Below, in pieces: positions 10,808 to 36,214 of a stretch of 64,000 nt of DNA. The first letter of the stretch is position 1; every line of letters starts with the position of its first letter. The stretch covers positions 4,076 to 68,075 of the forward strand of contig DAIPIU010000002.1 of the NCBI GenBank assembly GCA_036770645.1, written 5' to 3'. The notes under the pieces are model-generated. The model did no database searches. It was not told where the DNA came from and saw only the letters and a list, made by a program, of their open reading frames with translations. This stretch comes from Rubrimonas sp. (GTDB lineage: Bacteria; Pseudomonadota; Alphaproteobacteria; Rhodobacterales; Rhodobacteraceae). A program made the position numbers and the translations under genes.

Positions 10808-10953
10808 CGCCGCCTCCCCGCCATGGCCGGCCCCGGATGCGGCCCTTGTCGCAGAGCGGCCTAGGGGACTTGGCCCCCCCGTCAAGGCTGGCTAGGCTGG
10901 CCCGCAGCCGCGCGACCACTGCAGACGCGGCGCGACGACGGGGGGCGGGAGCG

Positions 10954-13760: not shown

Positions 13761-13764
13761 CCGG

Positions 13765-14121: not shown

Positions 14122-14127
14122 GAGCCC

Positions 14128-16097: not shown

Positions 16098-16396
16098 GCC
16101 CCTTCGACCTGCCCCCGCTCGTGGCCGGCGCCTTGGCCGCCGCGGTCGCCATGAGCGGCCTGTCGCTGGTGCTGGCCTTCCTGCGCCTGCTGCGAGGGCC
16201 GACGCTGGCGGACCGGGTGGTGGCGGCCGATCTGGTCACCACCATCCTGATCGTGCTGCTGACGCTGGTGGGCCTCGGCCTCGACGACGGGGCCTATCTG
16301 GATGCGGCCGTGGCGCTGGCGCTGGTCGCGTTCCTCGCGACCGTGGCCTTCGCCCGCTACATCGACCGCCGCACCCCGCCGGAGGCCGCGCCATGA
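16094..16396 (+). CDS. mrpF: Mrp antiporter subunit F
   Basis: 100 aa with LRLLRGPTLADRVVAADL. ATGA overlap with mrpE. Confidence 0.85.
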   Translation: MSPFDLPPLVAGALAAAVAMSGLSLVLAFLRLLRGPTLADRVVAADLVTTILIVLLTLVGLGLDDGAYLDAAVALALVAFLATVAFARYIDRRTPPEAAP

Positions 16397-16731
16397 GCTT
16401 CGTCTGGGAGATCATCGCCGCGGGCCTGCTGGTCGCGGGCGGCGGGCTGGTGCTGCTGGCCGGGGTCGGCATCATCCGCCTCGAGGACGTGTTCCTGCGC
16501 ATGCACGCCGCCACCAAGGCGGGCACGCTGGGCCTCGGGCTGGTGGTGATCGCCGCCGGGCTGTGGACCGAAAGCACCGCGCTCGCCGAGAAGGCGATCA
16601 TGGTGTTCCTGTTCATCCTCGTGACCGCGCCGGTCAGCGCGCATCTGGTGGGGCGCGCCGTCTACCGCGCCATGACGCGCGACGAACGAGAGGCGGGCTC
16701 GCCCGGCGTCCACCCGGGCGAGCCGGGCTAG
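16393..16731 (+). CDS. mrpG: Mrp antiporter subunit G
   Basis: 112 aa with GIIRLEDVFLRMHAATKAGTLG. ATGA overlap with mrpF. Confidence 0.85.
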   Translation: MSFVWEIIAAGLLVAGGGLVLLAGVGIIRLEDVFLRMHAATKAGTLGLGLVVIAAGLWTESTALAEKAIMVFLFILVTAPVSAHLVGRAVYRAMTRDEREAGSPGVHPGEPG

Positions 16732-16944
16732 GCGCGGGACCCGGCCGGCGGTTTCGCGGCAGGGCGGCGCTCCGGTCCGGGGGCCGGGGGGCTGCGCGCC
16801 GGGCCGCCCCATCGCGCGCGGATCGTCGCGACGCTGCCGAACGCGCAGGAGCGCCGCGGCCCGGGGCGCGGCATCGCCGCCCTGCGCATCGGGGGAGGCG
16901 GGGCCACCGCGGTCGCGGTCGGGCGGGGCAGGGGACCAGACGCC

Positions 16945-18282
16945 TCAGCCCAGATAGACGCGCGCGGCGGGATAGGCGATCCGCGGCCGCGCGCGGGTCG
17001 CGAGGAAGAATCCCAACGTCAGGGGCCCGACCCGTCCGAGAAACATCGCCGCCATGATCACGCCGCGGCCCCAGTCGTCGAGACGGCCGGTCTCGCCGCG
17101 CGACAGGCCCACCGTTCCGAAGGCCGAGCAGAGCTCGAACACGATGTCGAGGAATTCGCCGTCATGGCCGATCAGGATCGCGAAGGCCCCGAACCCGACC
17201 ACCCCCATGCTGATGGTCGTCAGCGCCATCGCCTTGAACACCTCCTCGAGCCCCAGGCTTCGCCCGAAGGCGTTGAGCTGGGTGCGCCGCCGGAAGAAGG
17301 CGACGGTGGCGAGGATCAGCACGATGAAGGTCGTCACCTTGATGCCGCCGCCGGTCGATGCGCTGCCGGCCCCGATCAGCATCAGCGAGATCATCATGAT
17401 GGTGGTCGATTCGTGCAGGCCTGCGATGTCGACGGTGTTGAAACCTGCGGTGCGCGGCGTGACGCCCTGGAACCAGGCGGCCATGAGCCGGGTCGGCACG
17501 TCCAGCGGGCCGAGCGTGCGCGGGTTGTTCCATTCGAGAACGGCGAATGCGCCGACCCCCCAGAGGATCAGCGCCGCGGTGCCGGCGAGCATGAGTTTCG
17601 TGTGGAAGCTCCAGCGCCGCCAGCCGCGCTTGGTCGCGACTTCCCACACCACGCTGTAGCCGAGCCCTCCGAGGATGAAGAGCCCCGGCACGACGAGGTT
17701 GACCACGGGGTTCGCGACCCATCGCGACAGGCCGTCCGGGCTGAGCTGGAACCCGGCGTTGTTGAAGGCCGAGACGGCGTGGAAGGCCGCGCTCCACAGC
17801 CCGTCCCGCCAGCCGAGCGCAGGCACGAAGACCAGCGCGAGCAGCGCCGCGCCCGCAATTTCGACGGCGAACACGACGCGCACCACGATCCACACGAGCC
17901 GGCGCAGGCCTTGCAGCGAGGTCTGGCTGAGATCGTCGCGCAGGACCATCTGCGACGGCAGGCCCATCTGCAGGCCGAGCGCCGCAAGGATCGCCACGGC
18001 GAAGGTCATGAGCCCGAGGCCGCCGAGCTGCATCAGCACCATCAGCACGCCCTGACCGAACGGCGTCAGGGACGTGCCGATGTCGAACACGACGAGGCCC
18101 GTCACCGTAACGGCAGAGGTGGCGGTGAACAGCGCGTCGTTCCAGCCGAAGGGGATCGCCTGCGCCCGCGGCGTCATGAGCAGCGCCGAGCCGACCGCGA
18201 TGAAGCCGGCATAGGCGAGCGCGAGAAGGGCGGGCGGCGGCAGCCGCAGCCAGCGCCGCCCGCCCATGCCGGCGCGCGCCAC
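16945..18282 (-). CDS. ktrB: K+ transporter membrane subunit, TrkH/KtrB family
   Basis: 445 aa with repeated selectivity-filter-like segments (TSAVTVTGL, NNAGF, RTAGFN, STGGGIKV). Confidence 0.9.
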   Translation of the reverse strand: MARAGMGGRRWLRLPPPALLALAYAGFIAVGSALLMTPRAQAIPFGWNDALFTATSAVTVTGLVVFDIGTSLTPFGQGVLMVLMQLGGLGLMTFAVAILAALGLQMGLPSQMVLRDDLSQTSLQGLRRLVWIVVRVVFAVEIAGAALLALVFVPALGWRDGLWSAAFHAVSAFNNAGFQLSPDGLSRWVANPVVNLVVPGLFILGGLGYSVVWEVATKRGWRRWSFHTKLMLAGTAALILWGVGAFAVLEWNNPRTLGPLDVPTRLMAAWFQGVTPRTAGFNTVDIAGLHESTTIMMISLMLIGAGSASTGGGIKVTTFIVLILATVAFFRRRTQLNAFGRSLGLEEVFKAMALTTISMGVVGFGAFAILIGHDGEFLDIVFELCSAFGTVGLSRGETGRLDDWGRGVIMAAMFLGRVGPLTLGFFLATRARPRIAYPAARVYLG

Positions 18283-18287
18283 GTCGG

Positions 18288-18947
18288 CTAGAGCGTGTCG
18301 CCGAAGGCGCGCAGAGCGGGCCTGCGGCCGAGCATCAGCATCCGGTCCTCCGCGTGCAGCACCGTCGCCGGGTCCGCCGCGTCAACGTAGTCCGGCCCGC
18401 GCATGATGCCGAGACAGCGCAGGTCGAATTTTGCCGCCAGCTTGAGCGAGCCGACGGCCTTGCCCTCCATCCAGGCTGGGGCGACCATGTTGACGACGTG
18501 GAACCCGTTGCCGAGGCTGACGTAATCGCGCACGGCCGGGTTGTTCAGCATCTGCGCGATGTGCTGGCCCATCTCGACTTCCGGCAGCACGACACGCTCC
18601 GCGCCGAGCTTGAGCAGGATGCGGTGCTGCGTGCGGTCGGCGGCCTTGGCCCAGACGGTCTTCACGCCGATGAGCTTGGCGTTCATCGTCGCCAGCACGG
18701 CGGCCTCGAGATCGCCGCCCATGGCGACCACTGCGACCGTGCATTCCTCGATGCCGGCCTCGCGCAACGCGGCCTCGTCGCGGGCATCGGCGATCACCGC
18801 CTCCGCGAGCACGTCCGCCAGCCGCGAGACGGCGCGTTCGTTGCTGTCGATCCCGAGGACATGGTTGCCGAAACGGGCGAGTTCCGACGCCACGGTCGAG
18901 CCGAAGCTGCCGAGGCCGATGACCGCGAAGTTCCTGCGCTTCTCCAT
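18288..18947 (-). CDS. ktrA: K+ uptake regulatory subunit, TrkA-N/TrkA-C (KtrA-like)
   Basis: 219 aa with Rossmann motif FAVIGLGSFGSTVA and a C-terminal RCK_C segment. It lies 5 nt upstream of ktrB. Confidence 0.9.
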   Translation of the reverse strand: MEKRRNFAVIGLGSFGSTVASELARFGNHVLGIDSNERAVSRLADVLAEAVIADARDEAALREAGIEECTVAVVAMGGDLEAAVLATMNAKLIGVKTVWAKAADRTQHRILLKLGAERVVLPEVEMGQHIAQMLNNPAVRDYVSLGNGFHVVNMVAPAWMEGKAVGSLKLAAKFDLRCLGIMRGPDYVDAADPATVLHAEDRMLMLGRRPALRAFGDTL

Positions 18948-18981
18948 CGGTCCATCCCGCAGTGCGAGCGGGCCCCCGGTT

Positions 18982-20328
18982 TCAGGCCCGGGCCACCCCG
19001 GTGAGGCGTTCGGTGACGGCGGGCGCCGCTGCGACGGCCCGGGCGATCACCTCGGCCGCGCGCTCGATCTGGTCGGCCGTGTGTTCGGACGTCGCGAACA
19101 GGCGCAGGCGGGCGCGGCGCTCGGGCACCGCGGGGTGCATGATCGGCGGGGCGCAGACGCCGGCGGCGAAGGCCCGGTCGGCGACGACGGCCGTGGTCGG
19201 GCTGTCGCCCAGCACCACGGGCGCGACCGCTAGGCCCTGGCTGAGGCCGGTGTCGAGGCCCCGCGCCTCGAGCGCCGCCTTCAGCAGCCGTCCGTTCTCG
19301 GCGAGGCGCGCGACGCGCTCTGGCTCGCGCCGCATGACCGCGAGCGCGGCCTCGGCCGCGGCGGCCAGCGGCGCGGACAGGCCAACCGAAAACACGAAGC
19401 CCGGCGCGCGCGCCTTGAGATAGCCGATCAGCGCCGCGGACCCCGCGATGTAGCCCCCTGTCGAACCGAGCGTCTTCGACAGCGTGCCCATCCAGATCTC
19501 GACCGAGGCCGGATCGACGCCCTGCGCCTCGGCGATCCCGCGCCCGGTCGCCCCGAGCACGCCCAGCGCATGCGCCTCGTCCACCATCAGCCAGGCGTCA
19601 TGGGCGGCCTTCACCTCGACGAAGCGGCGCAGGTCCGGCGCGTCGCCGTCCATGCTGTAGAGTCCCTCGATCACCACCAGCACGCGGTTGAACTCGCCGC
19701 GCAGGCGCGTCAGCGTCGCGTCCAGCCATTCGGCGTCGTTGTGCGGCATGGTCAGCCGCCGCGCCCCGGAGATGCGCGCGCCCTCGAGCGCCGAGTTGTG
19801 CACCAGCTCGTCGGTCACGATCAGGTCGCCCTGGCCGACCAGCGCCCCGATGGTGGTGACGTTGGTGGCGTGGCCCGAGACCATGACCACCGCGTCCTCG
19901 GTCCCCGTGGTCTCGGCCAGCGCGGCCTCGAGGCTGCGGTGGAAGGGGCGCTCGCCCCCCACGACGCGCGAGGCCGAGCACGAGACGCCATAGGTCGCGA
20001 TGGCGGCGGCGGCGGCGGCGCGGACCTCCGGGTGGCGGTTCAGCCCGAGATAATCGTAGGACGCGAAGTTGATCCGTTCGGCCCCGTCGATCATCGCCAT
20101 GGGACCGGCCTCGCCGCTGAGCGTGCGGAAATAGGGCGAGCCCACGCCCAGAACGGCCGCCGCGGCGCGCTGGATCTCGAGTTCGCGCGCGCCCGGCAGG
20201 GTGGCGAAGTCGAAGGCGCGCACCGCCGCCCGCGCGTCGGAGGCCGCGGCGGGCGCTGCGCGCCGGCGGGCGCGATGGGCCGCGCGCAGGCTCTCGACGA
20301 GGGCCGCGGGATCGGTGGGTCGGCTCAT
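18982..20328 (-). CDS. Alpha-oxoamine synthase family PLP enzyme (8-amino-7-oxononanoate synthase / serine palmitoyltransferase-like), PKS-coupled
   Basis: 448 aa with INFASYDYLGL, SGHATN, MVDEAHALG and GTLSKTLGSTGGY (PLP Lys). The ATG overlaps the PKS stop (ATGA at 20325-20328). It carries a ~60-aa N-terminal extension relative to BioF-sized enzymes. Confidence 0.9.
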   Translation of the reverse strand: MSRPTDPAALVESLRAAHRARRRAAPAAASDARAAVRAFDFATLPGARELEIQRAAAAVLGVGSPYFRTLSGEAGPMAMIDGAERINFASYDYLGLNRHPEVRAAAAAAIATYGVSCSASRVVGGERPFHRSLEAALAETTGTEDAVVMVSGHATNVTTIGALVGQGDLIVTDELVHNSALEGARISGARRLTMPHNDAEWLDATLTRLRGEFNRVLVVIEGLYSMDGDAPDLRRFVEVKAAHDAWLMVDEAHALGVLGATGRGIAEAQGVDPASVEIWMGTLSKTLGSTGGYIAGSAALIGYLKARAPGFVFSVGLSAPLAAAAEAALAVMRREPERVARLAENGRLLKAALEARGLDTGLSQGLAVAPVVLGDSPTTAVVADRAFAAGVCAPPIMHPAVPERRARLRLFATSEHTADQIERAAEVIARAVAAAPAVTERLTGVARA

Positions 20329-23300
20329 TCGATATCCTCTGCGACGGCCGGGGCGCCGGCCGCGCCCAGCCTTTCGGTGACGCGCGCCACGGCCTCCGGC
20401 CCGAGATGGCGCGCGGCGACGGCGGCAACGGCCGCCTGGGGGTCGCCGTCATCGTCGGTCGCCCCGCCCTCGCGCAGCTGCCCAGCGACGCGCGCGGCGA
20501 GCGCCGCCAGCGTCGCGCCCTCGGACAGCGACAGGACGGGCAGGCTGGCCCCGTATTTCTCCTCGAAGGACAGCTTGAGTTCGACGGCCATCAGGCTGTC
20601 GAAGCCGAGTTCGGCCATCGGGCGGTTCGGGTCGATCTCGCCCGGGTCGAGCCGCAGGATGGTGGCGGCCTCGGCGGCGAACAGGGCGACGACGGCGCGC
20701 ACCGCACCCCCCTCGTCCAGCCCCCGCAGCCGCGCCCGCAGGTCCATCCCCTCCGCCCCCGGCTGGGCCGTTCCGAGGCTGAGGTCCAGACGTTCGGTCA
20801 GCCCGCCCTCCAGCGTGCGCAGCGCGCCGGCCAGCGCGCCCCAGCGCACCCGGCCGATCGCCAGCGCCGCGTCGCCCTGCCCCTGGCCCGCCACCGCGGC
20901 CTCGAGCGCATCGAGCGCCGCCTGCGCGGCCATCGGCATCGCCCCCTGCCGTTCGAGCCGCAGGCGGGCATCGGCGTCCTCCGCCAGCATGCCCGCATCC
21001 GCGACGGGACCGAAGGCCAGCGCCAGACCTGGGCGACCCTCGGCCAGCCTTGCGGCGGCCAGCGCCTCGAGACCCGCATTGGCCGCGACATAGGCAGCCT
21101 GACCCGGGTTGCCGATCCAGGCGGCGAGCGAGGAGAACAGCAGGAAATGCCCGACCTTCGGGCCGCTGCGCGCCCGCTCGGCCGCGTCGAGCGCCAGTGC
21201 GCCGTCGAGTTTGGCCCGCAGCGCCGCCCGCGCCGTCACAGGGTCGAGCCGGTCCAGCAGCGCGTCCGAGGGCAGCGTCGCCGCATGGGCGATCCCGCCC
21301 AGCGGCGTCCCCGACGCGTCGATCTCGGCCATCAGCGCCGCGACGGCCGACGGATCGGCCGCGTCGCAGGCCCGCGCCACGACCCGCGCGCCCGATGCCG
21401 CGAGCCGCGCCCGCGCCGCGGGATCGAGCGTTCCCGTCCGCGACACCAGCCACAGCGCCCCCGCGCCGCGCAACGCCAGCCTTTCCGCCAGCGCAAGGCC
21501 GAAGCCCCGCGTGCCGCCGGTCACGAGCCAGGCGCGGTCCGGCCGCGCCAGCGGGGCGCGCGTCGCGGGGGCCTCCGGGGCGGCGGGCGGCAGCACCACG
21601 ATCTTGCCGATATGCCCCGAGCGCTGCATCAGCCGGAAGGCTTCGCGCACCTCTGTGCCGCCCACCGCCTGGAACGGCGGGGCGGCAAGGCCGCCGCTCG
21701 CCGCCTCGGCCGCCAGCGCGTCAAGCAGCGGGCGCGCGGAACCGGGGCGCGCCTTCAGCATGGCGTCGAGGTCCACGCCGAAATAGGACACGTTGCGCCG
21801 CAGGGGCCGCAGGCCGACGCGCGCATTGGCGTAGAAGTCGCGCTTGCCCAGTTCCACGAAGCGCCCGAACGCCCTGACGCAGCCGAGGCTGCGCTCCATC
21901 GCCTCGCCCGACAGGCTGTTGAGCACGACGTCGACGCCCTCGCCCCCGGTCGCCGCCATCACCCCGTCGGCGAAGTCGAGCCCGCGGCTGTCGAAGACGC
22001 GCTCCGCCCCCAGCAGCGTCAGCAGACGGCGCTTGGCCGGCGAGCCGGCGGTGGCGAACACCCGTGCGCCGCGCGCGCGCGCGATGCGCAGCGCCGCGAG
22101 GCCCACGCCCCCGGCGCCGCCATGGATCAGCACCGTCTCGCCGGATTCGAGCCTGCCGAGATCGACCAGCGCCCGCCAGGCGGTCGCGAACACCACCGGC
22201 AGGCTGGCCGCGGCTGCGGCGTCGAGACCCTCGGGCGCGCGCACGGCGGCCGCCGCGGCCATCACCGCATGGGTCGCGAGCGCGGAGGCCGCGAAGCCCG
22301 TCACGCGTTCGCCCTGCGCGAAGCCTGCGCCCGGCCCCGCTCGGGTCACGACGCCCGCGCATTCCATCCCCAGCCCTGCGCCGGAAAAGCCGTCCTCCAC
22401 CGCCTCCTCGGGCAGCAGGCCCATCGCCCACATCACGTCGCGGAAGTTCAGGCCCGCCGCTTCGACCGCGATCTCGATCTCGCCCGGGCCGGGCGCGCGC
22501 CGGGCGACCGGGGCCCAGCGCAGGCCTTCGAGGCCGCCCCCGCCATCGGCATCGAGCCGAAGGGCCGGCGGTTCGGTGCCGCCGAGCGCCGCGACGGCTG
22601 CGGATCGCGCGACATCGGCCGCGGCCTCGATCCGCGGGGCGGACAGCCCGCCGGGTCCGGCCTCGGCCTCGGTCTCCGCGCCCTCCGCCGTCAGCGCCGC
22701 AAGCGCGGCCACGGCCGCGGCCGGCGCGTCGAGGGCGGCGTCGAGGTCGAGCGCGCGCAGGTCGAGGTCGGGGCGTTCGTTCGCCGCCACGCGCACGGCC
22801 CCGCGGAGGGCCGCCGTCACGGGGCTCCGCGCGGCGCCGCGGGTCAGCACCAGCAGTCGCGAGGGCCGAGCCGCCAGCGCCGTTCGCAGCCTCGACAGCC
22901 CCGCCGTCACCGCCTCCGACGCCGCCGCGCCGTCGCCTCCATCGAGCAGCAGCACGAGCCAGCGCGCGTCGGCCCCCGTCTCGCCGGGGCCCGACAGGCG
23001 CGCCGCGCCCCCGCTGTCGGAGACGAGCGCCGCGAGCGCCCTTGCGTCGGGCATCCGGCCGGAGCCGGTCCAGATGACGGTCTCGCCCGGCGCGACCGGG
23101 CGCGCCGCCTGACCCGCGGCGGCCCGCGCCACGAGGACCGGCGTCGCCGGTCCCTCGATGGCGAGCCAGCCCGCCGACGCCTCCGCATAGCCGGCCGCGC
23201 GTGCCGCGGCGGTCAGCGCCGCCGGATCCGCCGCGCCGGCCGCCGCATCGGCCCCGTCGAGCGCGTCGAGCAGGTCGCGCAGCAGGTCCGTTCCCGTCCC

Positions 23301-26300
23301 CGCGAGCAGCAGCGTCGCCCCCGGCCGCAGCGCCCCCGCGGCCATCCGAAGCGCCGCGGCGCCTGCGGGGATCGCACCCGGATCGGCGAGAACAAGGTCG
23401 AAGTGACCCCGCTGGGACGCCGCGGCCCGCAGCGCCTCCGGTCCGTCGACCCGCTCGACGCGCGAGGCCCCCGCGGCGCGCAGGCCGTCCTCGGCCCGGT
23501 CCGGCGCGGTGCCTGCCAGCGCCACGTCGAAAGGCGCAGCATCCAAAGGCGCCCCCGCCGCCGCCCGCCGCGCCATGTCCGCGGCCGCGCGGAGCAGCGC
23601 CTCCCACGCGCCGGCCGGCGGCGCCGTCCGCGCGGGGGCGGGCGCGGTCGCGGCGGCGCCGGGTTCGAAGGCCGCGACAAGCCGCAGAAGGCGCGCCAGA
23701 TCGACGGCGCGCCCCGGGGCCTGCGCCGTCAGGGCTTCGACCAGCAGGTCGAGGCCCGGTGCGGGCGGGATCGCGCCCGGCTGGTCGGCGGCCGGATCGT
23801 AGGCCCCGTCCTCTGCGAGCGCGGCGAGGCCGCGTTCGAGCGCGCGCCGCTGGCCCTGTCCCAGCAGGCGGCGCGCGCGCAGCCCGACGCCGCCCGCAGG
23901 GGCGAGATCGCCCGCCACGTCCCAGATCAGGCGGCGGCAGGCCGCGTCGAGCAGCAGCGTGCCCGCATCGGGCTCGGGCGCCTCGGCCGCGGCCAGCCCA
24001 AGCGCGGCGAGGCGGTCGAGGTCCATGGGCACCGGCAGGGCGTCGGCCGGGCCGGAAAGCGGCCGCGCGACGCGCCGCCAGATCGGCTCGGCCGACGCCG
24101 CGCCGCGCCCGATGCGCACCGCCGCGAAGCGCACGCCCTCGGCGCTCGCGACCGCCTCGCCGTCGGACCCGCGCAGCACGAAACGCGCCTCGACCGACCG
24201 CGCGCCGATCCGCGTCACCGACGCCTCGGCGCTGGCCGGCGCCGCGCCGGGCCGGTGCAGCGTCAGCCTGCCGATGCGCACCGGCAGATGCGTCATGCCG
24301 CGCCGCGCCGCGCCCGGACCGCCGGCCAGCGCCGCCGCCACGAGGTGGAAGGCCGCGTCGAAGGCGGTCGGGTCGAGCATCCAGCCCGTGTCCGCGCCGG
24401 GGGCGGTCAGCGCGGCGACGGCGCGTCCGGCTTCTGCGACGACCGCGCCCGCCCTGCGGAACCGCGGCCCGTAGGCGAGGCCGAGCGCGGCCAGCCCGTC
24501 ATAGAGCGCCGCGTCCGGCATCTGCGCGAAGGCGACGGGCGGCACGCCCCGGGGCGCGGCGGACGGCGCGCGGCGCAGGACGCCCGCCGCATGCAGGGCC
24601 CACGCATCGTCCCGCAGATGCGCCCGGCCCTCGATGCGCAGCACGCCCGCGGCGGCATCCACCGCTGTGCGCAGTTCGATCCGCGCCCCGGCCTCGAGCG
24701 AGACGGGGCGCGTCAGGTCGAAGTCGCACAGCTCCAGCGGACCGTCGCCCAGCGCCTCGGCCCCGGCGGCGAGCGCCATCTCGACCAGCGCGGCGGCTGG
24801 CACCGCCGGCGCGCCGTCGACCACGTGATCGGCGAGCCAGGGTTCGAGCGTCGCGTCGAGGGTCAGCCGCCAGGCCGTGGAGTCCGGCGTCGGCCGCCAG
24901 CCCAGCAGCCGCCGCGGCGCGGGCGTGCGCAGCACGTCGATCCTCTCGGGCGTGGCCTGGATCGCGTGGGCCGTCTTGCGCCACGGATAAGACGGCGGAT
25001 CCGCGGCCAGAGCCGTGGGCGCGCCGAAGAAGGCCGCGTCGTCGATCGCCCCGCCCGCCGCGAGCGCGCGCGCGACGATAAGGCCGATGTCCTCGGCCCC
25101 GTCGCCCTGCCGGCGCAGCCCGGGGATCGCGGCGAAGGCGGCCCCCCGCGCGGCGAGCGTGTCCGACACATAGTTCACGAGCGTCGGCTGCGGCCCGATC
25201 TCTAGGAACACGCCGCAGCCGATTTCGGCCAGCGCGCCGACCGCCTGGCGGAACAGCACCGGTTGGCGGGCGTTGCGCCACCAGTATGCGCCGTCAAGGG
25301 CCTCGCCGGGCAGGACACGGCCCTCGGTCGTCGAGACGAAGGGGATCCGCGCCGGTCCCGGGGCCAGATCGGCGAGTTCGCTCAGCAGCGTCTCGCGGAT
25401 GCGCTCCATCTCGGGGCCGTGGAACGGATAGTCCACCTTGAGCCGGCGCATGGCGACGCGCGCCGACCTGCCGGCGGCTAGCAGCGCCTCGACCGCCTCG
25501 GCCGGGCCGGTGACGGTGGCGCCGCGCGGGCTGTTGTCGGCGGCGATGTCGAGGCCGTCGATGCCGGCGGCGGCGATGAGGCGCCGCGCTTCGTCGGCCG
25601 AGGCCAGCACCGCGGCCATCGACCCGGTGCCATAGAGCGGTCCCTGCCGGCGCGCGCGCCGCACGCACAGCCGCGCGGCCTGTGCGCGGCTCAGCGCCCC
25701 GCTGGCCCAGGCGGCGCCGACCTCGCCGACGCTGTGGCCCGCGACCGCCGCCGGCCGGAGCCCGCGCGCCGCCAGCGCGTCCGCCAGCGCGGCCTGGATG
25801 GCGAACAGCAGCGGCTGCGCGACCGTTGCCCGGCTCAGCCGGTCGGCGAGATCGGGGCGCGACAGCTCGTCGAGCAGGTCGGTTCCGCCCTCGGCCAGCA
25901 CGCAGGACGCGGTCGCGTCGAACGAGGCGCGGAAGGCGGGGTCGGCCGCATAGGCCGCCCGGCCCATTCCCGCGAACTGGCTGCCGTTGCCCGAGAACAC
26001 GAAGGCCACCGGCGCGGCGGTCCCGGCGGCCGCGGCATCGGCGGCGACGCGGCCCTCGCCGCGCCCCTCGGCCCAGGCCGCCACCGCGCGGCGCCGCGCC
26101 TCGGGGTCGGTTTCGGTCACGACCAGCCGGCGCGACAGCCGCGCGCGGCGATGCGCGGCCGCGGACACCAGGGCCGCCGTCTCTGCCGGTTCAGCGGCGG
26201 CCAGGCGATCCGCCCAGCGGGCGGCCAGCGCGCGCAGCCCGTCCTCGGTCGCGGCGCTGAGGATCAGGGGCGCCGACGGGTCGGGCGCCGCGGCGCCGGC

Positions 26301-27611
26301 CGCCGGCGCGGCCTCGGCGGCGCTCGGCTGGCGGATCGCGACATGGGCGTTGGCCCCGCCGAACCCGAAGGAGTTGACCCCCGCCACCCAGGGCGCGTCG
26401 CGCGGTGGCAGCGGCGCGCGCGCGCCGGCCGGCGCGATGTTCAGCGCCTCGAACGGGATCGCAGGGTTCGGTTCGCGAAGGTGCAGCGTCGCGGGCAGCA
26501 TCCCGCGCTCGAGCGCCATCTGCGCCTTGAGCAGCCCCACCAGCCCCGAGGCGGGCTCGAGATGGCCGACATTGGATTTCGCCGAACCGACGGGCAGGGG
26601 GCGCGCGCGGTCCCCCCCCAGCGCCGCGCCGATGGCGCCGGCCTCGATCGGATCGCCCACCGCCGTGCCGGTGCCGTGCGCCTCGACGAAGGCCAGATCG
26701 TCCGCCCGCACGCCGGCGCGCGCATAGACGGCGCGCATCAGGTCGGCCTGCCGGGCGCCGTTGGGGATCGACAGCGCGCCGGCGCGGCCGTCGCTGTTGA
26801 CGGCCGAGCCGACCACGACGCCGCGCACGGGGTCGCCCGCCGCCTGCGCGGCCCCGAGCCGCCCCAGCACGAAGGCGACCGCCCCCTCGGCGCGCACATA
26901 GCCGTCGGCGGCGCCGTCGAAGGGCCGGCAGAGGCCTGTCGGCGACAGCATGCCGGCCCGGCTGAAGCCGATGAAGGGCATCGGCGTCAGCAGCAGGTTC
27001 ACGCCCCCGACGATGGCGATGTCGACCTCGCCCGCCTCCAGCGCCTTGCAGGCGGCGTGGAAGGCGAACAGCGACGAGGAGCATGCAGTGTCGATCAGGT
27101 AGCTCGGGCCCTGCGCGTCGAGCACGAAGGACAGGCGGTTCGGAATGATGCTGAGCGTGTTGCCAAGCATGAACTGGGCGTCGGCCGAGGCCGGATCGCC
27201 CGCCTGCCGGTTGCCGTAATCCAGCCCCGAGGCCCCGACATAGACGCCCGTGCGCGGGCCCGCGAGGCGCGCCGGCGTCAGCCCGGCATGCTCGATCGCC
27301 TCCCAGGCGACCTGCAGGATCAGCCGCTGCTGCGGATCCATCTGCGCCGCTTCGCGCGGCGAGATGCCGAAGAAGCCGGCGTCGAAGCCGAACGGATCGG
27401 CCAGCAGCCCCGCCGCAGCCGTGTAGGTGCGCCCGGTGGCGGCGCGGTCGGGATGGACGAAGGCGCGCGGATCCCAGCGGTCCGGGCCTACGGCGCCGAC
27501 CGAGCAGCGCCCTTCGTCGAGCAGGGTCCAGAACGCCGCGGGGTCGTCGGCACCGGGCAGGCGGCAGCCGTATCCGAGAACGGCGACGCCAGGCTCTCCG
27601 CCGGTGTCCAC
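20325..27611 (-). CDS. Single-module, fully reducing type I polyketide synthase: KS-AT-DH-(pseudo-MT/pseudo-KR spacer)-ER-KR-ACP, no TE
   Basis: Numbering follows the 2553-aa track ORF. KS: DTACSSS (C302), EAHGTGT, KSNVGHLE, ~26328-27587. AT: GHSVGE (S752), ~25152-26012. DH: HVVDGAPAVP (H1054) and DPTAFDAAFH, ~24117-24929. ER: LIHGGAGGVGLAA, ~21588-22559. KR: VTGGTRGFG and GQAAYVAANA, ~20982-21533. ACP: GFDSLMAVEL (S2464), ~20487-20714. The start is set at GTG 27611 (GAGGGG SD 9 nt upstream, and codon bias changes there). Alternative ATGs are at 27767 and 27788. The track start 27986 overlaps the upstream gene. Confidence 0.9.
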   Translation of the reverse strand: MDTGGEPGVAVLGYGCRLPGADDPAAFWTLLDEGRCSVGAVGPDRWDPRAFVHPDRAATGRTYTAAAGLLADPFGFDAGFFGISPREAAQMDPQQRLILQVAWEAIEHAGLTPARLAGPRTGVYVGASGLDYGNRQAGDPASADAQFMLGNTLSIIPNRLSFVLDAQGPSYLIDTACSSSLFAFHAACKALEAGEVDIAIVGGVNLLLTPMPFIGFSRAGMLSPTGLCRPFDGAADGYVRAEGAVAFVLGRLGAAQAAGDPVRGVVVGSAVNSDGRAGALSIPNGARQADLMRAVYARAGVRADDLAFVEAHGTGTAVGDPIEAGAIGAALGGDRARPLPVGSAKSNVGHLEPASGLVGLLKAQMALERGMLPATLHLREPNPAIPFEALNIAPAGARAPLPPRDAPWVAGVNSFGFGGANAHVAIRQPSAAEAAPAAGAAAPDPSAPLILSAATEDGLRALAARWADRLAAAEPAETAALVSAAAHRRARLSRRLVVTETDPEARRRAVAAWAEGRGEGRVAADAAAAGTAAPVAFVFSGNGSQFAGMGRAAYAADPAFRASFDATASCVLAEGGTDLLDELSRPDLADRLSRATVAQPLLFAIQAALADALAARGLRPAAVAGHSVGEVGAAWASGALSRAQAARLCVRRARRQGPLYGTGSMAAVLASADEARRLIAAAGIDGLDIAADNSPRGATVTGPAEAVEALLAAGRSARVAMRRLKVDYPFHGPEMERIRETLLSELADLAPGPARIPFVSTTEGRVLPGEALDGAYWWRNARQPVLFRQAVGALAEIGCGVFLEIGPQPTLVNYVSDTLAARGAAFAAIPGLRRQGDGAEDIGLIVARALAAGGAIDDAAFFGAPTALAADPPSYPWRKTAHAIQATPERIDVLRTPAPRRLLGWRPTPDSTAWRLTLDATLEPWLADHVVDGAPAVPAAALVEMALAAGAEALGDGPLELCDFDLTRPVSLEAGARIELRTAVDAAAGVLRIEGRAHLRDDAWALHAAGVLRRAPSAAPRGVPPVAFAQMPDAALYDGLAALGLAYGPRFRRAGAVVAEAGRAVAALTAPGADTGWMLDPTAFDAAFHLVAAALAGGPGAARRGMTHLPVRIGRLTLHRPGAAPASAEASVTRIGARSVEARFVLRGSDGEAVASAEGVRFAAVRIGRGAASAEPIWRRVARPLSGPADALPVPMDLDRLAALGLAAAEAPEPDAGTLLLDAACRRLIWDVAGDLAPAGGVGLRARRLLGQGQRRALERGLAALAEDGAYDPAADQPGAIPPAPGLDLLVEALTAQAPGRAVDLARLLRLVAAFEPGAAATAPAPARTAPPAGAWEALLRAAADMARRAAAGAPLDAAPFDVALAGTAPDRAEDGLRAAGASRVERVDGPEALRAAASQRGHFDLVLADPGAIPAGAAALRMAAGALRPGATLLLAGTGTDLLRDLLDALDGADAAAGAADPAALTAAARAAGYAEASAGWLAIEGPATPVLVARAAAGQAARPVAPGETVIWTGSGRMPDARALAALVSDSGGAARLSGPGETGADARWLVLLLDGGDGAAASEAVTAGLSRLRTALAARPSRLLVLTRGAARSPVTAALRGAVRVAANERPDLDLRALDLDAALDAPAAAVAALAALTAEGAETEAEAGPGGLSAPRIEAAADVARSAAVAALGGTEPPALRLDADGGGGLEGLRWAPVARRAPGPGEIEIAVEAAGLNFRDVMWAMGLLPEEAVEDGFSGAGLGMECAGVVTRAGPGAGFAQGERVTGFAASALATHAVMAAAAAVRAPEGLDAAAAASLPVVFATAWRALVDLGRLESGETVLIHGGAGGVGLAALRIARARGARVFATAGSPAKRRLLTLLGAERVFDSRGLDFADGVMAATGGEGVDVVLNSLSGEAMERSLGCVRAFGRFVELGKRDFYANARVGLRPLRRNVSYFGVDLDAMLKARPGSARPLLDALAAEAASGGLAAPPFQAVGGTEVREAFRLMQRSGHIGKIVVLPPAAPEAPATRAPLARPDRAWLVTGGTRGFGLALAERLALRGAGALWLVSRTGTLDPAARARLAASGARVVARACDAADPSAVAALMAEIDASGTPLGGIAHAATLPSDALLDRLDPVTARAALRAKLDGALALDAAERARSGPKVGHFLLFSSLAAWIGNPGQAAYVAANAGLEALAAARLAEGRPGLALAFGPVADAGMLAEDADARLRLERQGAMPMAAQAALDALEAAVAGQGQGDAALAIGRVRWGALAGALRTLEGGLTERLDLSLGTAQPGAEGMDLRARLRGLDEGGAVRAVVALFAAEAATILRLDPGEIDPNRPMAELGFDSLMAVELKLSFEEKYGASLPVLSLSEGATLAALAARVAGQLREGGATDDDGDPQAAVAAVAARHLGPEAVARVTERLGAAGAPAVAEDIE

Positions 27612-27707
27612 GTCAATCCACCCCTCAGGCAATCCGGCGTCCCCAATCTGTCGGTTGAAGGACAGCCTCGATCGGCCCCTCGCAGCAGGCCCTCCCCCAG
27701 CCTCAGT

Positions 27708-27736
27708 TGTATCGCGAACGCCCGCGGCGCCGTCAA
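27708..27736 (-). promoter_or_regulatory. Candidate sigma-70-type promoter for the PKS-AONS pair
   Basis: On the minus strand, TTGACG (27736-27731), a 17-nt spacer, then GATACA (27713-27708). It sits in the 226-nt less GC-rich gap upstream of GTG 27611. This is pattern match only. Confidence 0.3.
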
Positions 27737-27837
27737 TGGCGGCATGGATGCGGCGCAGAAAAGGCATGCCGCGGCGCCGAAGGCGCATGGCGCGCCGCCG
27801 CAACGCGCGCCGCCGGGCGGCGTTGCCGCCGGGGCGA

Positions 27838-28653
27838 TCAGGCCAGCGCGGGATAGCCCAGCGCGTCGGCCGCCGCCGCCCGCGCCGCCACGGCCGCATA
27901 GGCCCCCTCATCGGCCGGGACCGCGCCGAGCAGGCCCAGCACGCGCCGCGCCGGCAGCGTTCCGGGCGCGCCGCAGGTCTCGACAAGGGCCTCGGTCAGC
28001 AGCGCCGCGGTCGCATCCGGAGCCGCCGCGGCCGCGATGAAGGGCAGGGACGGGGCGGGGTCGGTCCAGCCGATCGCCCGCAGCGCTCCGGCCAGCGCGG
28101 GATCGACCCTGCCGATCAGGCGCCACGTCACGCAATCGAGCGCGCAGGCGTCCGCCCGTCCCGACGCGACCGCCGCCGCCGAGGCGCGGTGGGTCCCGGT
28201 GGTCAGGACGGTCCCGAAGAATCGCCCCTGCGACGCGAGCGGCGCCAGGGCCATGCGCAGGGCATGGCAGCCCGACAGGCTGTCGGACCCGTTCATCGCG
28301 AGCCGCCGTCCGCGCAGGTCGTCCAGCGCCTGCGCTGGATCGTCCCGGCGCACGACGACCGCCGAGCGGTAGGTCGGCCCCGCGCAGCCCTCGGCCTCGT
28401 AGACGGGCGAGGCCAGCAGGCGCACGCGGCCCGCCAGCGCCGTGGCGTAGGGCCAGCCGCAGGTCTGCGACAGCAGCAGGCGCGGGTCGCTCCAGTGGTC
28501 GACGAGCGGCCCGTTCGGGCGGGTCAGGCGCGAGGGCGCGCCGAGGCCCCGCGCGCGGATCGCCGCCGCCAGCGCCTCCCACAGGGCGTCCGTCGCGGCA
28601 CGGATCTCGGGGAAGTCGTACATCGGCAGCGAGGCGGGGCCGGGTTCCCGCAC
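27838..28653 (-). CDS. PhnD/SsuA-like periplasmic-binding-protein-fold protein without signal peptide
   Basis: 271 aa. LPMYDFPEIRAATDALWEAL, LSQTCGWPY, RSAVVVRRD, NGSDSLSGCHALR and GRADACALDCVTW resemble the phosphonate-binding (PF12974-like) fold. The N-terminus is not hydrophobic. It lies 11 nt after the desaturase stop. Confidence 0.7.
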   Translation of the reverse strand: MREPGPASLPMYDFPEIRAATDALWEALAAAIRARGLGAPSRLTRPNGPLVDHWSDPRLLLSQTCGWPYATALAGRVRLLASPVYEAEGCAGPTYRSAVVVRRDDPAQALDDLRGRRLAMNGSDSLSGCHALRMALAPLASQGRFFGTVLTTGTHRASAAAVASGRADACALDCVTWRLIGRVDPALAGALRAIGWTDPAPSLPFIAAAAAPDATAALLTEALVETCGAPGTLPARRVLGLLGAVPADEGAYAAVAARAAAADALGYPALA

Positions 28654-28664
28654 GCCGTCCGCGG

Positions 28665-29618
28665 TCAGGGCGCGCGTCCCAGCGGATGGGGCACCGGGTC
28701 CTTCGCGGTCAGGAGATGCTTCCGGAACACCTCAAGATACGAGGCGTAGCGATAGCCGCGGTTGCGCGCCAGGAACCGGTCGCGCCGCGCCGCGTAAAGG
28801 CCGGGCAGCGCGTGCCATGCGAGGCGCGGATGGGCGTGATGCACCGCATGGAAGTTGTTGTTCAGGAACAGCAGCGCCAGCGGCCCGCGATCCTCGATCA
28901 CCACGCTGCGGCCCGCCGCCTGCTCGTGCGCACGGTGTTCGAGGAAGGTGCGGATCTTCAGGACCGACAGCGCCACATAGCAGGAGGCGAGATAGGCCCA
29001 TGCGGGCATGGTCCCGACCGTGGACAGCCAGACCGCCACCGGCGCGGCCCCCGCCGCGTGCAGCGCCCAGGCCCTGCGCACCGCCGCACGGTCCGGACCG
29101 GCGGTCGCGGCGCGCCATTCCCCGGCCGCGAAGCGCGCCAGCCCGATGGCGGGCCCCAGCGCCATCCTGCCGAGCAGCGTGTTGTTAGCTTGCAACAGCG
29201 CGCGCAGCGCCGGGTGCAGGCGCGCCCAGACGACCGGATCGAGGAAATTGGATTCGGGGTCGTCATAGGGGTCGGTCAGGCGCTCGTCGCGGTGATGCGC
29301 GAGGTGCAGGTCGCGGAAGCGTCCGTAGGGGATCAGCAGGCCCAGCGCCGGGAACACCAGCGCCTCCGACAGTGCCCGGCTGCGGAACGGGTGGCCGTGC
29401 AACACCTCGTGCTGCAGCGAGGAATGCTGGGTCAGGCACAGCGCCGTCAGCGGCACGGCCAGCCACAGGGTCATCGTCCCGGCCCACAGCGTCGCGCCGG
29501 CCCACAGGGCATAGGTCGCGGCCAGCAGCGCGAGCGTCGGCGTTTCGGATGCGCCGCGGGTGGCGAAGCGCGGGTGGTCTAGCCGTTCCGTCGGCGGAAG
29601 GGTCTGTGGTGCTGACAT
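28665..29618 (-). CDS. Membrane fatty-acid/lipid desaturase (three His boxes)
   Basis: 317 aa with His boxes HEVLHGH, HLAHHRDE and HAVHHAHP, plus hydrophobic helices. It is the first gene of the minus-strand cluster. Confidence 0.85.
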   Translation of the reverse strand: MSAPQTLPPTERLDHPRFATRGASETPTLALLAATYALWAGATLWAGTMTLWLAVPLTALCLTQHSSLQHEVLHGHPFRSRALSEALVFPALGLLIPYGRFRDLHLAHHRDERLTDPYDDPESNFLDPVVWARLHPALRALLQANNTLLGRMALGPAIGLARFAAGEWRAATAGPDRAAVRRAWALHAAGAAPVAVWLSTVGTMPAWAYLASCYVALSVLKIRTFLEHRAHEQAAGRSVVIEDRGPLALLFLNNNFHAVHHAHPRLAWHALPGLYAARRDRFLARNRGYRYASYLEVFRKHLLTAKDPVPHPLGRAP

Positions 29619-29656
29619 GTCACGATGCTGCCACGGCGCGCGCCGCGCGCCAGTGG

Positions 29657-29737
29657 GCGAGTTCGCGTGCGGCGATCACGCATCCACAATGAACGGCCCG
29701 ATTCATTGCGAACTCGCATCTCTCGTGCGAGATGTAA
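29657..29737. promoter_or_regulatory. Candidate operator/promoter block between the desaturase and the XRE regulator
   Basis: GCGAGTTCGC (29657-29666) and its reverse complement GCGAACTCGC (29708-29717). Inverted repeat CTCGCA-N7-TGCGAG (29713-29731). Possible promoter TTCGCG-N17-CACAAT (29662-29690). ATGTAA start-stop (29732-29737) lies 3 nt before the regulator ATG. Confidence 0.3.
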
Positions 29738-29740
29738 CCG

Positions 29741-30601
29741 ATGGATCGTCGCGCCCTCGCCGCCCTGTTCCGCGAACGCCTCGGCGCGCTGGTCGCAGGC
29801 GGGCAGGGCGGGCTTGCGCGCCTCGGCCGCGACAGCGGCGTCGACCGATCGGCGCTGAGCCAGTTCCTCGATCCCGGCGCCGACCGGCTTCCGCGCGCGG
29901 AGACGCTGCGCGCGCTGGCCGCCGCGCGGGGCGTCTCCACCGACTGGCTGGTGGGCCTCAGCCATGCCCAGCGCGGCGGGCAGGGGCTGGCCCCGAGCGC
30001 CGAGATCGAATCCGCCTTCCATGCCGATGGCGGCTCGCCCCTCGAGCGCTGGCGGCGCGAGGCGGCGGGGGGGAAGCTGCGCTATGTGCCATCGACCCTG
30101 CCGGACATGCTGCGCCTGCCCGAACTGATGGCCTGGGAGGAATCGGGACCGCAGGGCGGGGTGCGGCTGGATTTCGCCGAGGCCCTGCTCGACGACGCGC
30201 GGCTGGGCGATGTCGATGTCGAGATCGCGATGCCGCGCCAGACGCTCGGGGCGCTGGCGGCGGGGGCGGGGCTGTGGTCGGGGATGGATGCGGCGCTGCG
30301 CCGCCGCCAGCTCGCCTTCATGGCCGAGCAATGCGCGGCGCATTACCCGCGCCTGCGGCTGCACCTGCATGACGGGCGGCGCACCTATTCCGCGCCCTTC
30401 ACGGTGTTCGGCCTCGCCCGCGCCGCGATCTACCTCGGCCGGTCCTACCTCGTGCTGACGGCCGCCGATCAGGTGCGGGCGCTTGCCCGCCATTTCGACC
30501 TGCTGGTGCGCGATGCCGAGACGCCCTCCGACCGCGCCCCGGAGGCGCTGCGCGCGCTTGCCGCGTCGGTGCCGGATGATGCGAACCGCGAGGCGGTCTA
30601 G
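29741..30601 (+). CDS. XRE-family HTH transcriptional regulator with ~200-aa C-terminal domain of unknown function
   Basis: 286 aa. The N-terminal HTH is LARLGRDSGVDRSALSQFLDPG...ETLRALAAARGVSTDWLVGLS. It is divergent from the desaturase-PKS cluster. Confidence 0.75.
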   Translation: MDRRALAALFRERLGALVAGGQGGLARLGRDSGVDRSALSQFLDPGADRLPRAETLRALAAARGVSTDWLVGLSHAQRGGQGLAPSAEIESAFHADGGSPLERWRREAAGGKLRYVPSTLPDMLRLPELMAWEESGPQGGVRLDFAEALLDDARLGDVDVEIAMPRQTLGALAAGAGLWSGMDAALRRRQLAFMAEQCAAHYPRLRLHLHDGRRTYSAPFTVFGLARAAIYLGRSYLVLTAADQVRALARHFDLLVRDAETPSDRAPEALRALAASVPDDANREAV

Positions 30602-30645
30602 AGAGAGAGCGGATGCGCCGCTTCCGCTGCGCCACGGAGTTCCCG

Positions 30646-31209
30646 ATGCGCCTCGTCGCCGTTGCCCTCGCCGCTCTCGCCGCCGTCCCCGCCCTGGCCG
30701 AGCGGCCGCCCCACGCCGTCACCGGCTTCGCCGGCGCCCTGATCGATGCGCCGTGGGAGGAGGCGGCCGTCTTCTGGGACTGGGACTTCCAGTCCGCCTA
30801 TCCCGTGGGCATCGCCGCATCGGCCCGTCTGGCGCGGCCGGCGCCGGGCCTCGCCCTCGAGGCGGAGCTTCAGCTCGTTCGGCATTTCGGCGATCAGGAC
30901 CACTGGGAGGTCAACGCGCCGGTGATGACCGCCCGCTGGCTCGCCTTTCCCTGGAGCGAGACCCTGGACACCAGCGCGGCCTTCGGGCTCGGGCTGTCCT
31001 TCGCTTCCGAGGTTCCCGCCGCCGAGGTCGCCCTCGAGGGCGAGTCGGAGCAGATCCTGGCCTACTGGATGATCGAGCTCGATGCGGGCCTGCCCGAAAG
31101 CCCCTGGCGCGTCGCGGGGCGCCTGCACCACCGCTCGACCGCTTTCGGCGCCTTCGGCGAGGACGGCGGCAGCAATGCATTGGTCGTGGGCGTGAAGCGG
31201 CTGTTCTGA
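30646..31209 (+). CDS. PagL-like acyloxyacyl hydrolase / lipid A deacylase-type outer-membrane beta-barrel
   Basis: Signal peptide [22 protein letters not shown](T) resembles the PagL His-x-Ser catalytic motif. The C-terminus is VGVKRLF. Start at the second ATG; 30613 is an alternative. Confidence 0.55.
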
Positions 31210-31339
31210 TTCGGCGGCGGAGCCGCGGCCCGCATGCCGCAGGGCCGCGACCTCGGGCCCCGCCCGTCACCGCGCGCTTGCGGACCGGTGCGCGGGATGT
31301 ATCTTCCGGTCAGCCATGCCGCCAACCGGAGCCGCGCCC

Positions 31340-31519
31340 ATGATCGACGCCCCCGAGGTCGTTCTCGTCGATGCCGACCGCGTGTCCTGCGAGGGCGAGG
31401 GCGGGGCGCTCGGCCATCCGCGCGTCTGGTACAGCATCCCGAAGGACACCGGCTGGGTCGACTGCAAGTACTGCGACCGCCGCTTCGTCCGCCGGGGCGG
31501 GGCGGCCGACCGGGGCTGA
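31340..31519 (+). CDS. zf-CHCC zinc-finger protein (NDUFS6 C-terminal-like)
   Basis: [19 protein letters not shown]...[11 protein letters not shown] matches the CHCC finger pattern. The start is MIDAPEV; 31316 is an alternative. Confidence 0.7.
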
Positions 31520-31544
31520 CCGGGGCTGACCGGATGATGTCCGC

Positions 31545-31835
31545 TCAGGGCGGCGCGGCGGGTTCCGTCTCGGCGTAGAGCAGCCTCGCCTCCGCGGCCG
31601 GCCCGCGCCGGTCGCCCAGCGCGGTCACCGTCAGCACCCTCACCGCGCCGCCCGCGCTGACCGTCAGCACGTCGCCGATCCGCACGCGCGCGCCGGGCTT
31701 TTCGATTCGGCGGCCATTGATGCGGACGCCGCGCGCGCAGGCCGTCGCGGCGAGGGATCGGCTGCGATGCAGGCGCGCCCGCCACAGCCAGACGTCGAGG
31801 CGCAGGGCCTCGCCGGCTTCCGCCCCGTCGCTCAT
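31545..31835 (-). CDS. S4-domain RNA-binding protein (Hsp15/HslR-like)
   Basis: 96 aa. LRLDVWLWRARLHRSRSLAATACARGVRINGRRIEKPGARVRIGDVL is a typical S4 fold signature. Confidence 0.8.
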   Translation of the reverse strand: MSDGAEAGEALRLDVWLWRARLHRSRSLAATACARGVRINGRRIEKPGARVRIGDVLTVSAGGAVRVLTVTALGDRRGPAAEARLLYAETEPAAPP

Positions 31836-31896
31836 CGGGACTGGCGCGGGCCCCGGCCCCGCGGCGGGCGTCTGCGCGCGGTCGCGCGGCCGTCGG

Positions 31897-35397
<3,501 letters not shown>

Positions 35398-35463
35398 CGG
35401 GCGCGTCCTTCGGTCGGGGCGCAGAGGGGGCAGGGCGCCGCCCGGCGGCGGGGGCGTGGTCCC

Positions 35464-36102: not shown

Positions 36103-36214
36103 GGAACTAGCCCCTATCCTGCGCAAGGCGAGAGTGCGCCGCGCCCATGGGGACGCGATTTCGGAAAGGCGGACGCGCAGGAACGCGCGCCGGGGACGGA
36201 CGGGGGACCACGGC

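Follow-up and report, generated by a model that had tools for sequence, protein, structure and literature searches.

In Pseudomonas fluorescens MYb115, SgaA, a type I polyketide synthase (PKS) that acts iteratively, and the alpha-oxoamine synthase (AONS) SgaB produce C24-C28 sphinganines along with phosphoglycerol sphingolipids (Peters et al., Nat Commun 2025, PMC12134224). Deletion of sgaA or sgaB abolishes the C24-C28 sphinganines, purified PfSgaB is in vitro a serine-specific, virtually serine-exclusive serine palmitoyltransferase (SPT), and a KDSR-like short-chain dehydrogenase/reductase (SDR), SgaC, is encoded five locus-tag steps from SgaB (PMC12134224). PKS and AONS genes also occur in the rkp-1 K-antigen region of Sinorhizobium meliloti (rkpA[BCDEF]-rkpG-rkpH-rkpI-rkpJ, with rkpU upstream) and in wcb, the capsular polysaccharide I (CPS-I) operon of Burkholderia, with the PKS gene wcbR and with wcbT (PMC3908369, PMC7902896, PMC7858667, PMC9386255). 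'WcbR/RkpA-type' denotes a class of mono-modular PKS (PMC3908369), and the S. meliloti pair is genetically required for capsule (PMC7902896). Here, we compare with these systems a PKS-AONS gene pair on the minus strand of a 64,000-nucleotide stretch of a Rubrimonas sp. contig (DAIPIU010000002.1, positions 4,076 to 68,075). This whole stretch is called the window below, and positions are counted from its first base. With a probability of about 0.8, we read the pair as a two-gene unit of the RkpA/RkpG, WcbR/WcbT, SgaA/SgaB family that is detached from capsule genes, most likely makes a very-long-chain 3-ketosphinganine, and stands beside an unrelated gene module.

The PKS, the AONS and their family

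The G+C content of the window is about 75%. A sequence-only reading had described an orphan cluster of four minus-strand genes, encoding a desaturase, a PhnD-like protein, the PKS and the AONS, and all four are present at the coordinates it gave (Table 1), as judged by reading frames, Pfam matches and the codon-position GC pattern of real genes (GC content at third positions, GC3, about 0.9). The PKS gene starts with GTG at 27611, and Pfam detects ketoacyl-synt, Acyl_transf_1, PKS_DH_N/PS-DH, ADH_N/ADH_zinc_N, KR and PP-binding in 20325-27611. The motifs DTACSS, HGTGT, GHSVG, HVVDGAPAVP, HGGAGGVG, TGGTRGFG with YVAAN, and GFDSL are intact. Pfam and motif reading thereby bear out the description of a full set of ketosynthase (KS), acyltransferase (AT), dehydratase (DH), enoylreductase (ER), ketoreductase (KR) and acyl carrier protein (ACP) domains, with no thioesterase (TE), reductase (R) or condensation (C) domain after the ACP; the tail of about 53 residues that follows it matched no Pfam domain. 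The PKS stop and the AONS start share an ATGA at 20325-20328, which had been noticed before and is read directly from the letters, and this overlap couples translation of the AONS to that of the PKS.

The window AONS shares 51% identity with PfSgaB across 392 aa (E 2e-124, 357 bits; PfSgaB sequence from Fig. S6 of PMC12134224) and 52% with the S. meliloti rkpG-position protein (386 bits), which in turn shares 52% identity with PfSgaB, the three proteins being mutually 50-52% identical. Solved SPT, KBL and BioF structures give about 170-210 bits, the best SPT or KBL scoring 209 bits. About 150 alignment columns, including the active-site blocks HNS, DEAH and TLSKT, are invariant among the window AONS, its relatives and PfSgaB. 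The window PKS is colinear with the PKS at the rkpA position of S. meliloti and with an SgaA-like PKS of Pseudomonas, at 39-42% identity over residues 9-1236 and 1559-2404 (about 40% to a close Pseudomonas SgaA homologue). As with SgaA/SgaB, a single-module, predictedly iterative type I PKS lacking a TE is followed directly by a discrete AONS, and the PKS-then-AONS order is also that of S. meliloti rkp-1 and of wcbR/wcbT in the Burkholderia pseudomallei CPS-I operon. Because of these AONS identities, and because the PKSs are similar and colinear, RkpA/RkpG, WcbR/WcbT and SgaA/SgaB form, by sequence, a single family that includes the window pair.

The label 'orphan' is thus dropped: the literature describes a cluster whose PKS-AONS core has the same genes and whose product is known. 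The release logic put forward for it matches the experiments on the homologous SgaA/SgaB (PMC12134224): a discrete AONS takes the chain off a highly reducing PKS that lacks a TE, and a 2-amino-3-keto, sphingoid-base-like lipid results. The fungal Fum1/Fum8 system of fumonisin and related pathways to sphinganine analogues, in which a discrete AONS likewise off-loads a highly reducing PKS without a TE, are alike by analogy only. Fum-type enzymes are eukaryotic, take alanine as substrate and make methylated chains.

For the distribution of the pair, an AONS alignment was scanned against GTDB, with each species represented by a single genome, and the 80 best loci were retrieved. At least 598 AONS relatives were confirmed among the GTDB species representatives. 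The 80 best loci come from Alpha-, Beta- and Gammaproteobacteria, and in 77 of them the gene immediately upstream of the AONS encodes a homologous PKS. The closest named AONS relatives belong to the genera Oceanicella, Albimonas, Paroceanicella and Mongoliimonas, all four of which appear in the 6,101 SgaAB-like clusters listed by Peters et al. (PMC12134224).

The window AONS passes no curated NCBIfam cut-off, and its score profile is the same as that of the S. meliloti rkpG-position protein. The best-scoring model is bioF (TIGR00858, 343.9 bits), and relatives are labeled '8-amino-7-oxononanoate synthase' by JGI, as would be expected if the gene were the organism's BioF and had come to lie beside a PKS by coincidence. 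Such a coincidence is hardly credible: the score falls short of the cut-off of 426.45, the AONS start overlaps the PKS stop, the pairing recurs in nearly all of the best loci across three proteobacterial classes, the characterized homologue is an SPT, and no other bio genes are present in the window. The three SPT equivalog models score far below their cut-offs (287 of 640, 263 of 500 and 197 of 670). In the canonical bacterial route to sphingolipids, as in Caulobacter and Sphingomonas, Spt works with a dedicated ACP and an acyl-ACP synthetase, followed by CerS/CerR (PMC9386255). The window AONS belongs to the same superfamily and would likewise carry out a pyridoxal 5'-phosphate (PLP)-dependent condensation of serine with an acyl thioester, but a dedicated type I PKS that carries its ACP in cis would supply the acyl donor, in place of fatty-acid synthesis and a small ACP. 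As the sequence-only reading had said, genes of the acp, cerS and cerR types are missing from the neighborhood, and so is an acyl-ACP synthetase gene. A canonical bacterial SPT identity was rejected on these scores and on the lack of small-ACP and acyl-ACP synthetase neighbors.

The substrate choice of an AONS is not readable from sequence, and the identity to the characterized PfSgaB is only 51%, which leaves some room for an enzyme that takes alanine, glycine or a short acyl chain and makes a 1-deoxy-sphingoid base or a CqsA/LqsA-like alpha-hydroxyketone signal. We consider this very unlikely, since PfSgaB is virtually serine-exclusive (PMC12134224), the invariant columns with HNS, DEAH and TLSKT are shared with it, the NCBIfam autoinducer-synthase model reaches 159 against a cut-off of 428, and the full reducing loop of the PKS argues for a long saturated chain.

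Gene context of the pair and its relation to capsule loci

The commonest neighbors of the pair in its relatives, as found by clustering open reading frames and scanning representatives, are an SDR just after the AONS, Capsule_synth (KpsC/KpsS), Poly_export, an ABC ATPase and UDP-glucose dehydrogenase. By tblastn on the 80 related loci, capsule genes are present in 40, an SDR in 35, and at least one of the two in 51. Two of the compared loci illustrate this setting. On a plasmid of Pseudomonas sp. TMW 2.1634 (NZ_CP016850.1, 10971-36119), the AONS is 77% identical to PfSgaB and is followed by genes for a PhyH-family dioxygenase, KpsC, a GNAT protein, a lipoteichoic acid (LTA)-synthase-family protein, an SDR resembling PfSgaC, KpsS-like proteins, KpsF and KdsB, with the SDR five genes from the AONS. 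Unlike this locus and that of SgaA/SgaB, the 64-kb window has no counterpart of the SDR, dioxygenase, Kps-like, GNAT and LTA-synthase-family partners. In S. meliloti (CP090106.1, 639917-665059), the order is a divergent polysaccharide-export gene, a 2502-aa PKS, a 471-aa AONS, an SDR, an unannotated LtaS-like stretch, a capsule-biosynthesis gene and kpsF; the record carries no gene names, and rkp names were assigned from gene order and literature. The S. meliloti pair is thus embedded among export, SDR, LtaS-like and capsule genes, whereas the window pair has no capsule gene near it. Searches of PDB and NCBIfam with the S. meliloti rkpH-position SDR, and of NCBIfam with the Pseudomonas SDR, gave generic SDR matches, with no KDSR among the matches listed, and the KDSR assignment therefore rests on the published claim for SgaC (PMC12134224).

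In a neighbor-joining tree of 86 AONS sequences (no bootstrap support), the window sequence forms a clade with two near relatives (L088, which is GCA_964582945.1, and L081) and a Rubrimonas metagenome-assembled genome (L001), and none of these has capsule or SDR neighbors. Because the clade is nested among Rhodobacterales loci that do have such neighbors (L003, L006, L013, L016, L017, L061 and L063), the tree suggests that the pair was detached from a capsule locus secondarily. In the Rubrimonas genome, the nearest named relative, the pair (AONS 73% identical) is flanked on one side by genes for an AMP-binding enzyme and a ketopantoate-reductase-like protein and on the other by genes for hydrogenase maturation, with no capsule genes around it. 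Since this context is quite different from that of the window, the pair behaves as a portable two-gene unit. Rubrimonas cliftonensis, which is in culture, carries the pair as well, with an AONS of 70% identity.

The same enzymology could instead serve a capsule. A Kps-type (ABC-transporter-dependent) capsular polysaccharide would then have the product as its lipid anchor or primer, and other parts of the genome would hold the genes for Kps proteins, SDR and phosphoglycerol transferase. This is a real possibility, though we put it tentatively. It is favored by the 51 of 80 related loci with capsule genes or an SDR beside the pair, by the presence of the pair within rkp-1 of S. meliloti and within a kps locus of Pseudomonas, by the nesting of the window clade among capsule-linked Rhodobacterales loci, and by the standing of rkp-1 and wcb as known capsule regions (PMC7902896, PMC7858667, PMC3908369). 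Against it, kps genes are absent from the 64-kb window and from the surroundings of the Rubrimonas pair, literature searches found no paper showing a sphingolipid-anchored capsule, and in MYb115 free sphinganines and phosphoglycerol sphingolipids were detected as lipids in their own right (PMC12134224).

The adjacent desaturase module and other features of the window

Upstream of the pair, the window carries a regulator gene divergent from a desaturase gene, and a PhnD-like gene between the desaturase and the PKS. The sequence-only reading had counted all three as members of the cluster, and a corresponding model would have four minus-strand genes and the regulator form one cluster, in which the desaturase and perhaps the PhnD-fold protein tailor the product to an unsaturated sphingoid or alpha-aminoketone lipid. 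In favor of it, the four genes are co-directional and tightly spaced, and the regulator/desaturase/PhnD-like/PKS/AONS/trkA order is kept in three other loci (L081, L088 and L094). This synteny says little, however, because the three are close relatives (82-100% AONS or desaturase-module identity) that also keep the unrelated trkA-trkH genes downstream. None of the 80 wider PKS-AONS loci contains a homologue of the desaturase, the PhnD-like protein or the regulator, even at E 1e-2. Desaturase orthologues, 64-71% identical, are common in Rhodobacterales and occur in six loci without the PKS (L085, L086, L087, L091, L095 and L096). Regulator orthologues, divergent and carrying HTH_3, adjoin the desaturase in L086 and L087 (38-42% identity) and in L095 and L096 (65%). 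The latter two loci have desaturase, regulator and PhnD-like gene together with no PKS, and in L091, also without a PKS, the desaturase has only the PhnD-like gene beside it, and the stop of one overlaps the start of the other. In five of these loci (L086, L087, L091, L095 and L096), the regulator/desaturase(/PhnD-like) module thus stands by itself. The comparative evidence says that it is, as far as gene content and order can tell, a conserved module of its own, separate from the PKS-AONS unit.

The intergenic sequence also speaks against a single cluster. A gap of 226 bp separates the PhnD-like stop from the PKS start, and its sole strongly conserved stretch, when the window is aligned with L081 and L094, is a promoter-like block, TTGACG-N17-GATACA (Table 1), which we infer to be the pair's own promoter. 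A perfect palindrome and candidate operator, TCGCA-N7-TGCGA, lies only in front of the desaturase; it has no other perfect copy in the window and none upstream of the PKS, and L096 has TCACA-N7-TGTGA at the same aligned position, although a single match of this kind is not above chance by count alone. The desaturase itself has no Lipid_DES domain. Taken with the 0 of 80 loci, the recurrence of the module without a PKS and the gap with its conserved block, this makes the one-cluster model unlikely, and the desaturase, PhnD-like protein and regulator are not retained as cluster members. The predicted further desaturation of the product is without comparative support, since the desaturase module is not shown to belong to the PKS-AONS cluster.

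Of the other claims about these three genes, one holds and one is weaker. The PhnD-like protein had been described as leaderless, and this is so: it and all six homologues inspected begin at a conserved (A/S)L(P/S)MYD motif and have no signal peptide. The NCBI call for this gene starts at ATG 28623 and gives 261 aa. The assignment of the regulator to the XRE family is the weaker one: the window copy matches HTH_3 only below threshold (E 0.078), although its orthologues carry this domain. A sphingolipid delta-4 desaturase (DEGS/Des1 type) was tried as an identity for the neighboring desaturase and rejected, as the N-terminal Lipid_DES is missing and the best NCBIfam match is a weak one to CrtR (E 1.6e-7). 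In Rhodobacterales, the module has the form of an XRE-like regulator of about 286 aa divergent from a desaturase of about 300-325 aa, often followed by a leaderless PhnD/SsuA-fold protein; in it, a cytoplasmic binding-fold protein is coupled to a desaturase.

Table 1. Coordinates of the features described, in window positions.
Feature	Position	Strand	Details
PLP-dependent alpha-oxoamine synthase, RkpG/WcbT/SgaB-type, SPT-like	18982..20328	-	448 aa; Pfam Aminotran_1_2 E 8e-46
Predicted iterative, fully reducing single-module type I PKS, RkpA/WcbR/SgaA-type	20325..27611	-	2428 aa; Pfam KS-AT-DH-ER-KR-ACP, no TE/R/C
ACP domain	20487..20675	-	residues 2313-2375; Pfam PP-binding; GFDSL, attachment serine at residue 2339
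KR domain	20997..21530	-	residues 2028-2205; Pfam KR E 4e-39; VTGGTRGFG and catalytic YVAAN
ER domain	21594..22490	-	residues 1708-2006; Pfam ADH_N, ADH_zinc_N, ADH_zinc_N_2; NADPH-binding site LIHGGAGGVG
DH domain	24114..24890	-	residues 908-1166; Pfam PKS_DH_N and PS-DH; HVVDGAPAVP at residue 929
AT domain	25068..26003	-	residues 537-848; Pfam Acyl_transf_1 E 5e-65; GHSVG at residue 625
KS domain	26478..27587	-	residues 9-378; Pfam ketoacyl-synt and Ketoacyl-synt_C; DTACSS at 174, HGTGT at 312, NVGH
Promoter-like block	27707..27736	-	TTGACG (27736-27731), 17-nt spacer, GATACA (27713-27708); about 96 nt upstream of the PKS GTG
Leaderless PhnD/SsuA-fold protein	27838..28653	-	Pfam Phosphonate-bd E 2e-27
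Membrane FA_desaturase-family protein	28665..29618	-	317 aa; Pfam FA_desaturase (PF00487) E 1.5e-29
Perfect palindrome TCGCA-N7-TGCGA, candidate operator	29714..29730	.	TCGCATCTCTCGTGCGA; between regulator and desaturase
XRE-like regulator, divergent from desaturase	29741..30601	+	286 aa; HTH_3 E 0.078
Small secreted protein, 'PagL-like' in the sequence-only reading	30643-31209	+	signal peptide, C-terminal ...VKRLF, HHRS motif near C-terminus

The small secreted protein beyond the regulator is kept in L088 and L094. Examined as 30613-31209 for membership in PagL, the lipid A 3-O-deacylase, it had no Pfam or NCBIfam match, and a single-sequence AlphaFold model was unusable (predicted local distance difference test score, pLDDT, 36). 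Its signal peptide, C-terminal Phe and HHRS motif are compatible with a small outer-membrane barrel, which might possibly be PagL-like. On the other side of the pair, trkA-trkH (K+ uptake) begin 34 bp downstream, in a position kept in the near relatives L081, L083, L084 and L088, and a multi-subunit Mrp-type cation/proton antiporter operon lies just beyond (10783-18947). Further along, 31897-35397 on the minus strand encodes a 1166-aa protein whose first 272 residues or so match a Suv3-type DEXQ helicase and Helicase_C and whose roughly 890 C-terminal residues have no Pfam match. A plus-strand open reading frame of 1902 aa at 31717-37425 (stop-to-stop frame from 31579) was set aside as probably a high-GC artifact, as the overlapping minus-strand gene 31897-35397 has the higher GC3 and the Pfam matches. 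An Rfam scan of 16000-32000 gave no match at E <= 0.1.

Proposed pathway and implications

By analogy with the characterized homologues, the single-module PKS would act iteratively, extending a starter with malonyl units and fully reducing each of them, and a saturated, very long acyl chain would grow on the enzyme's own ACP. Since the PKS has no TE, release would fall to the coupled PLP enzyme, and the AONS would free the chain by condensing it, most likely with L-serine, in a decarboxylative Claisen reaction that gives a very-long-chain 3-ketosphinganine. An SDR would then reduce this to sphinganine; an SDR of the RkpH/SgaC type lies next door in most relatives, and here it would be encoded elsewhere in the genome. 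A head group such as phosphoglycerol might be added afterwards. The iterative action, chain length, serine substrate and later reduction, as well as the biological role of the product as capsule anchor or free lipid, are carried over to the window pair from these homologues. In this Rhodobacterales lineage, the unit would have left a Kps-type capsule locus and, with its own promoter-like element, come by juxtaposition to lie beside an unrelated module and upstream of trkAH.

Several observations weigh against this reading of the pair as a detached, sphinganine-forming unit. Searches of the 64-kb window by tblastn and Pfam scans found no RkpH/SgaC-like SDR, KpsC/S, export, LtaS-family or other capsule gene, so the steps after the condensation are unaccounted for within it. 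The AT has YPFH where malonyl-specific ATs show the canonical HAFH, and an identity of 51% to PfSgaB is no proof of serine specificity or of a C24-C28 chain length. The case for a promoter of the pair's own is one of conservation only: when 18200-31400 was scanned for sigma-70 and terminator consensus sequences, neither a promoter nor an intergenic terminator turned up, a result that is uninformative at 75% GC. Finally, because the desaturase/PhnD-like/PKS/AONS order is kept in the three nearest relatives (L081, L088 and L094, 82-100% identity), a new functional link could have arisen in this lineage. In that event, the captured pair and the regulator/desaturase/PhnD-like module might jointly produce a sphingoid membrane lipid that is unsaturated, has a very long chain and is independent of capsule, with the PhnD-fold protein acting as a lipid- or head-group-handling partner of the desaturase and not as a transporter component; we think this quite unlikely.

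Reading the pair as a member of the RkpA/RkpG, WcbR/WcbT, SgaA/SgaB family removes an apparent orphan, as the family has a known sphinganine-making member. Rubrimonas-like, high-GC Rhodobacterales join the likely PKS-dependent sphingolipid producers, and the pair is seen to be able to exist away from capsule genes. The detached, SDR-less arrangement is in itself a modest variant of a known pair.

For the family, the rkpA/rkpG and wcbR/wcbT genes have been linked genetically to capsules since the 1990s, and in E. coli group 2 capsules lyso-phosphatidylglycerol serves as a comparable lipid anchor. The main text describing SgaAB never mentions capsule, rkp, wcb or kps (PMC12134224), and literature searches found no explicit link between capsule lipid anchors and PKS-derived sphingolipids. 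Because the rkpA/rkpG (wcbR/wcbT) 'capsule lipid' genes and the SgaAB sphingolipid cluster appear to be one module, phosphoglycerol sphingolipid may, by analogy, be the lipid anchor of rkp/wcb-type capsules. This question is now directly testable, and it may outweigh the window itself in usefulness.

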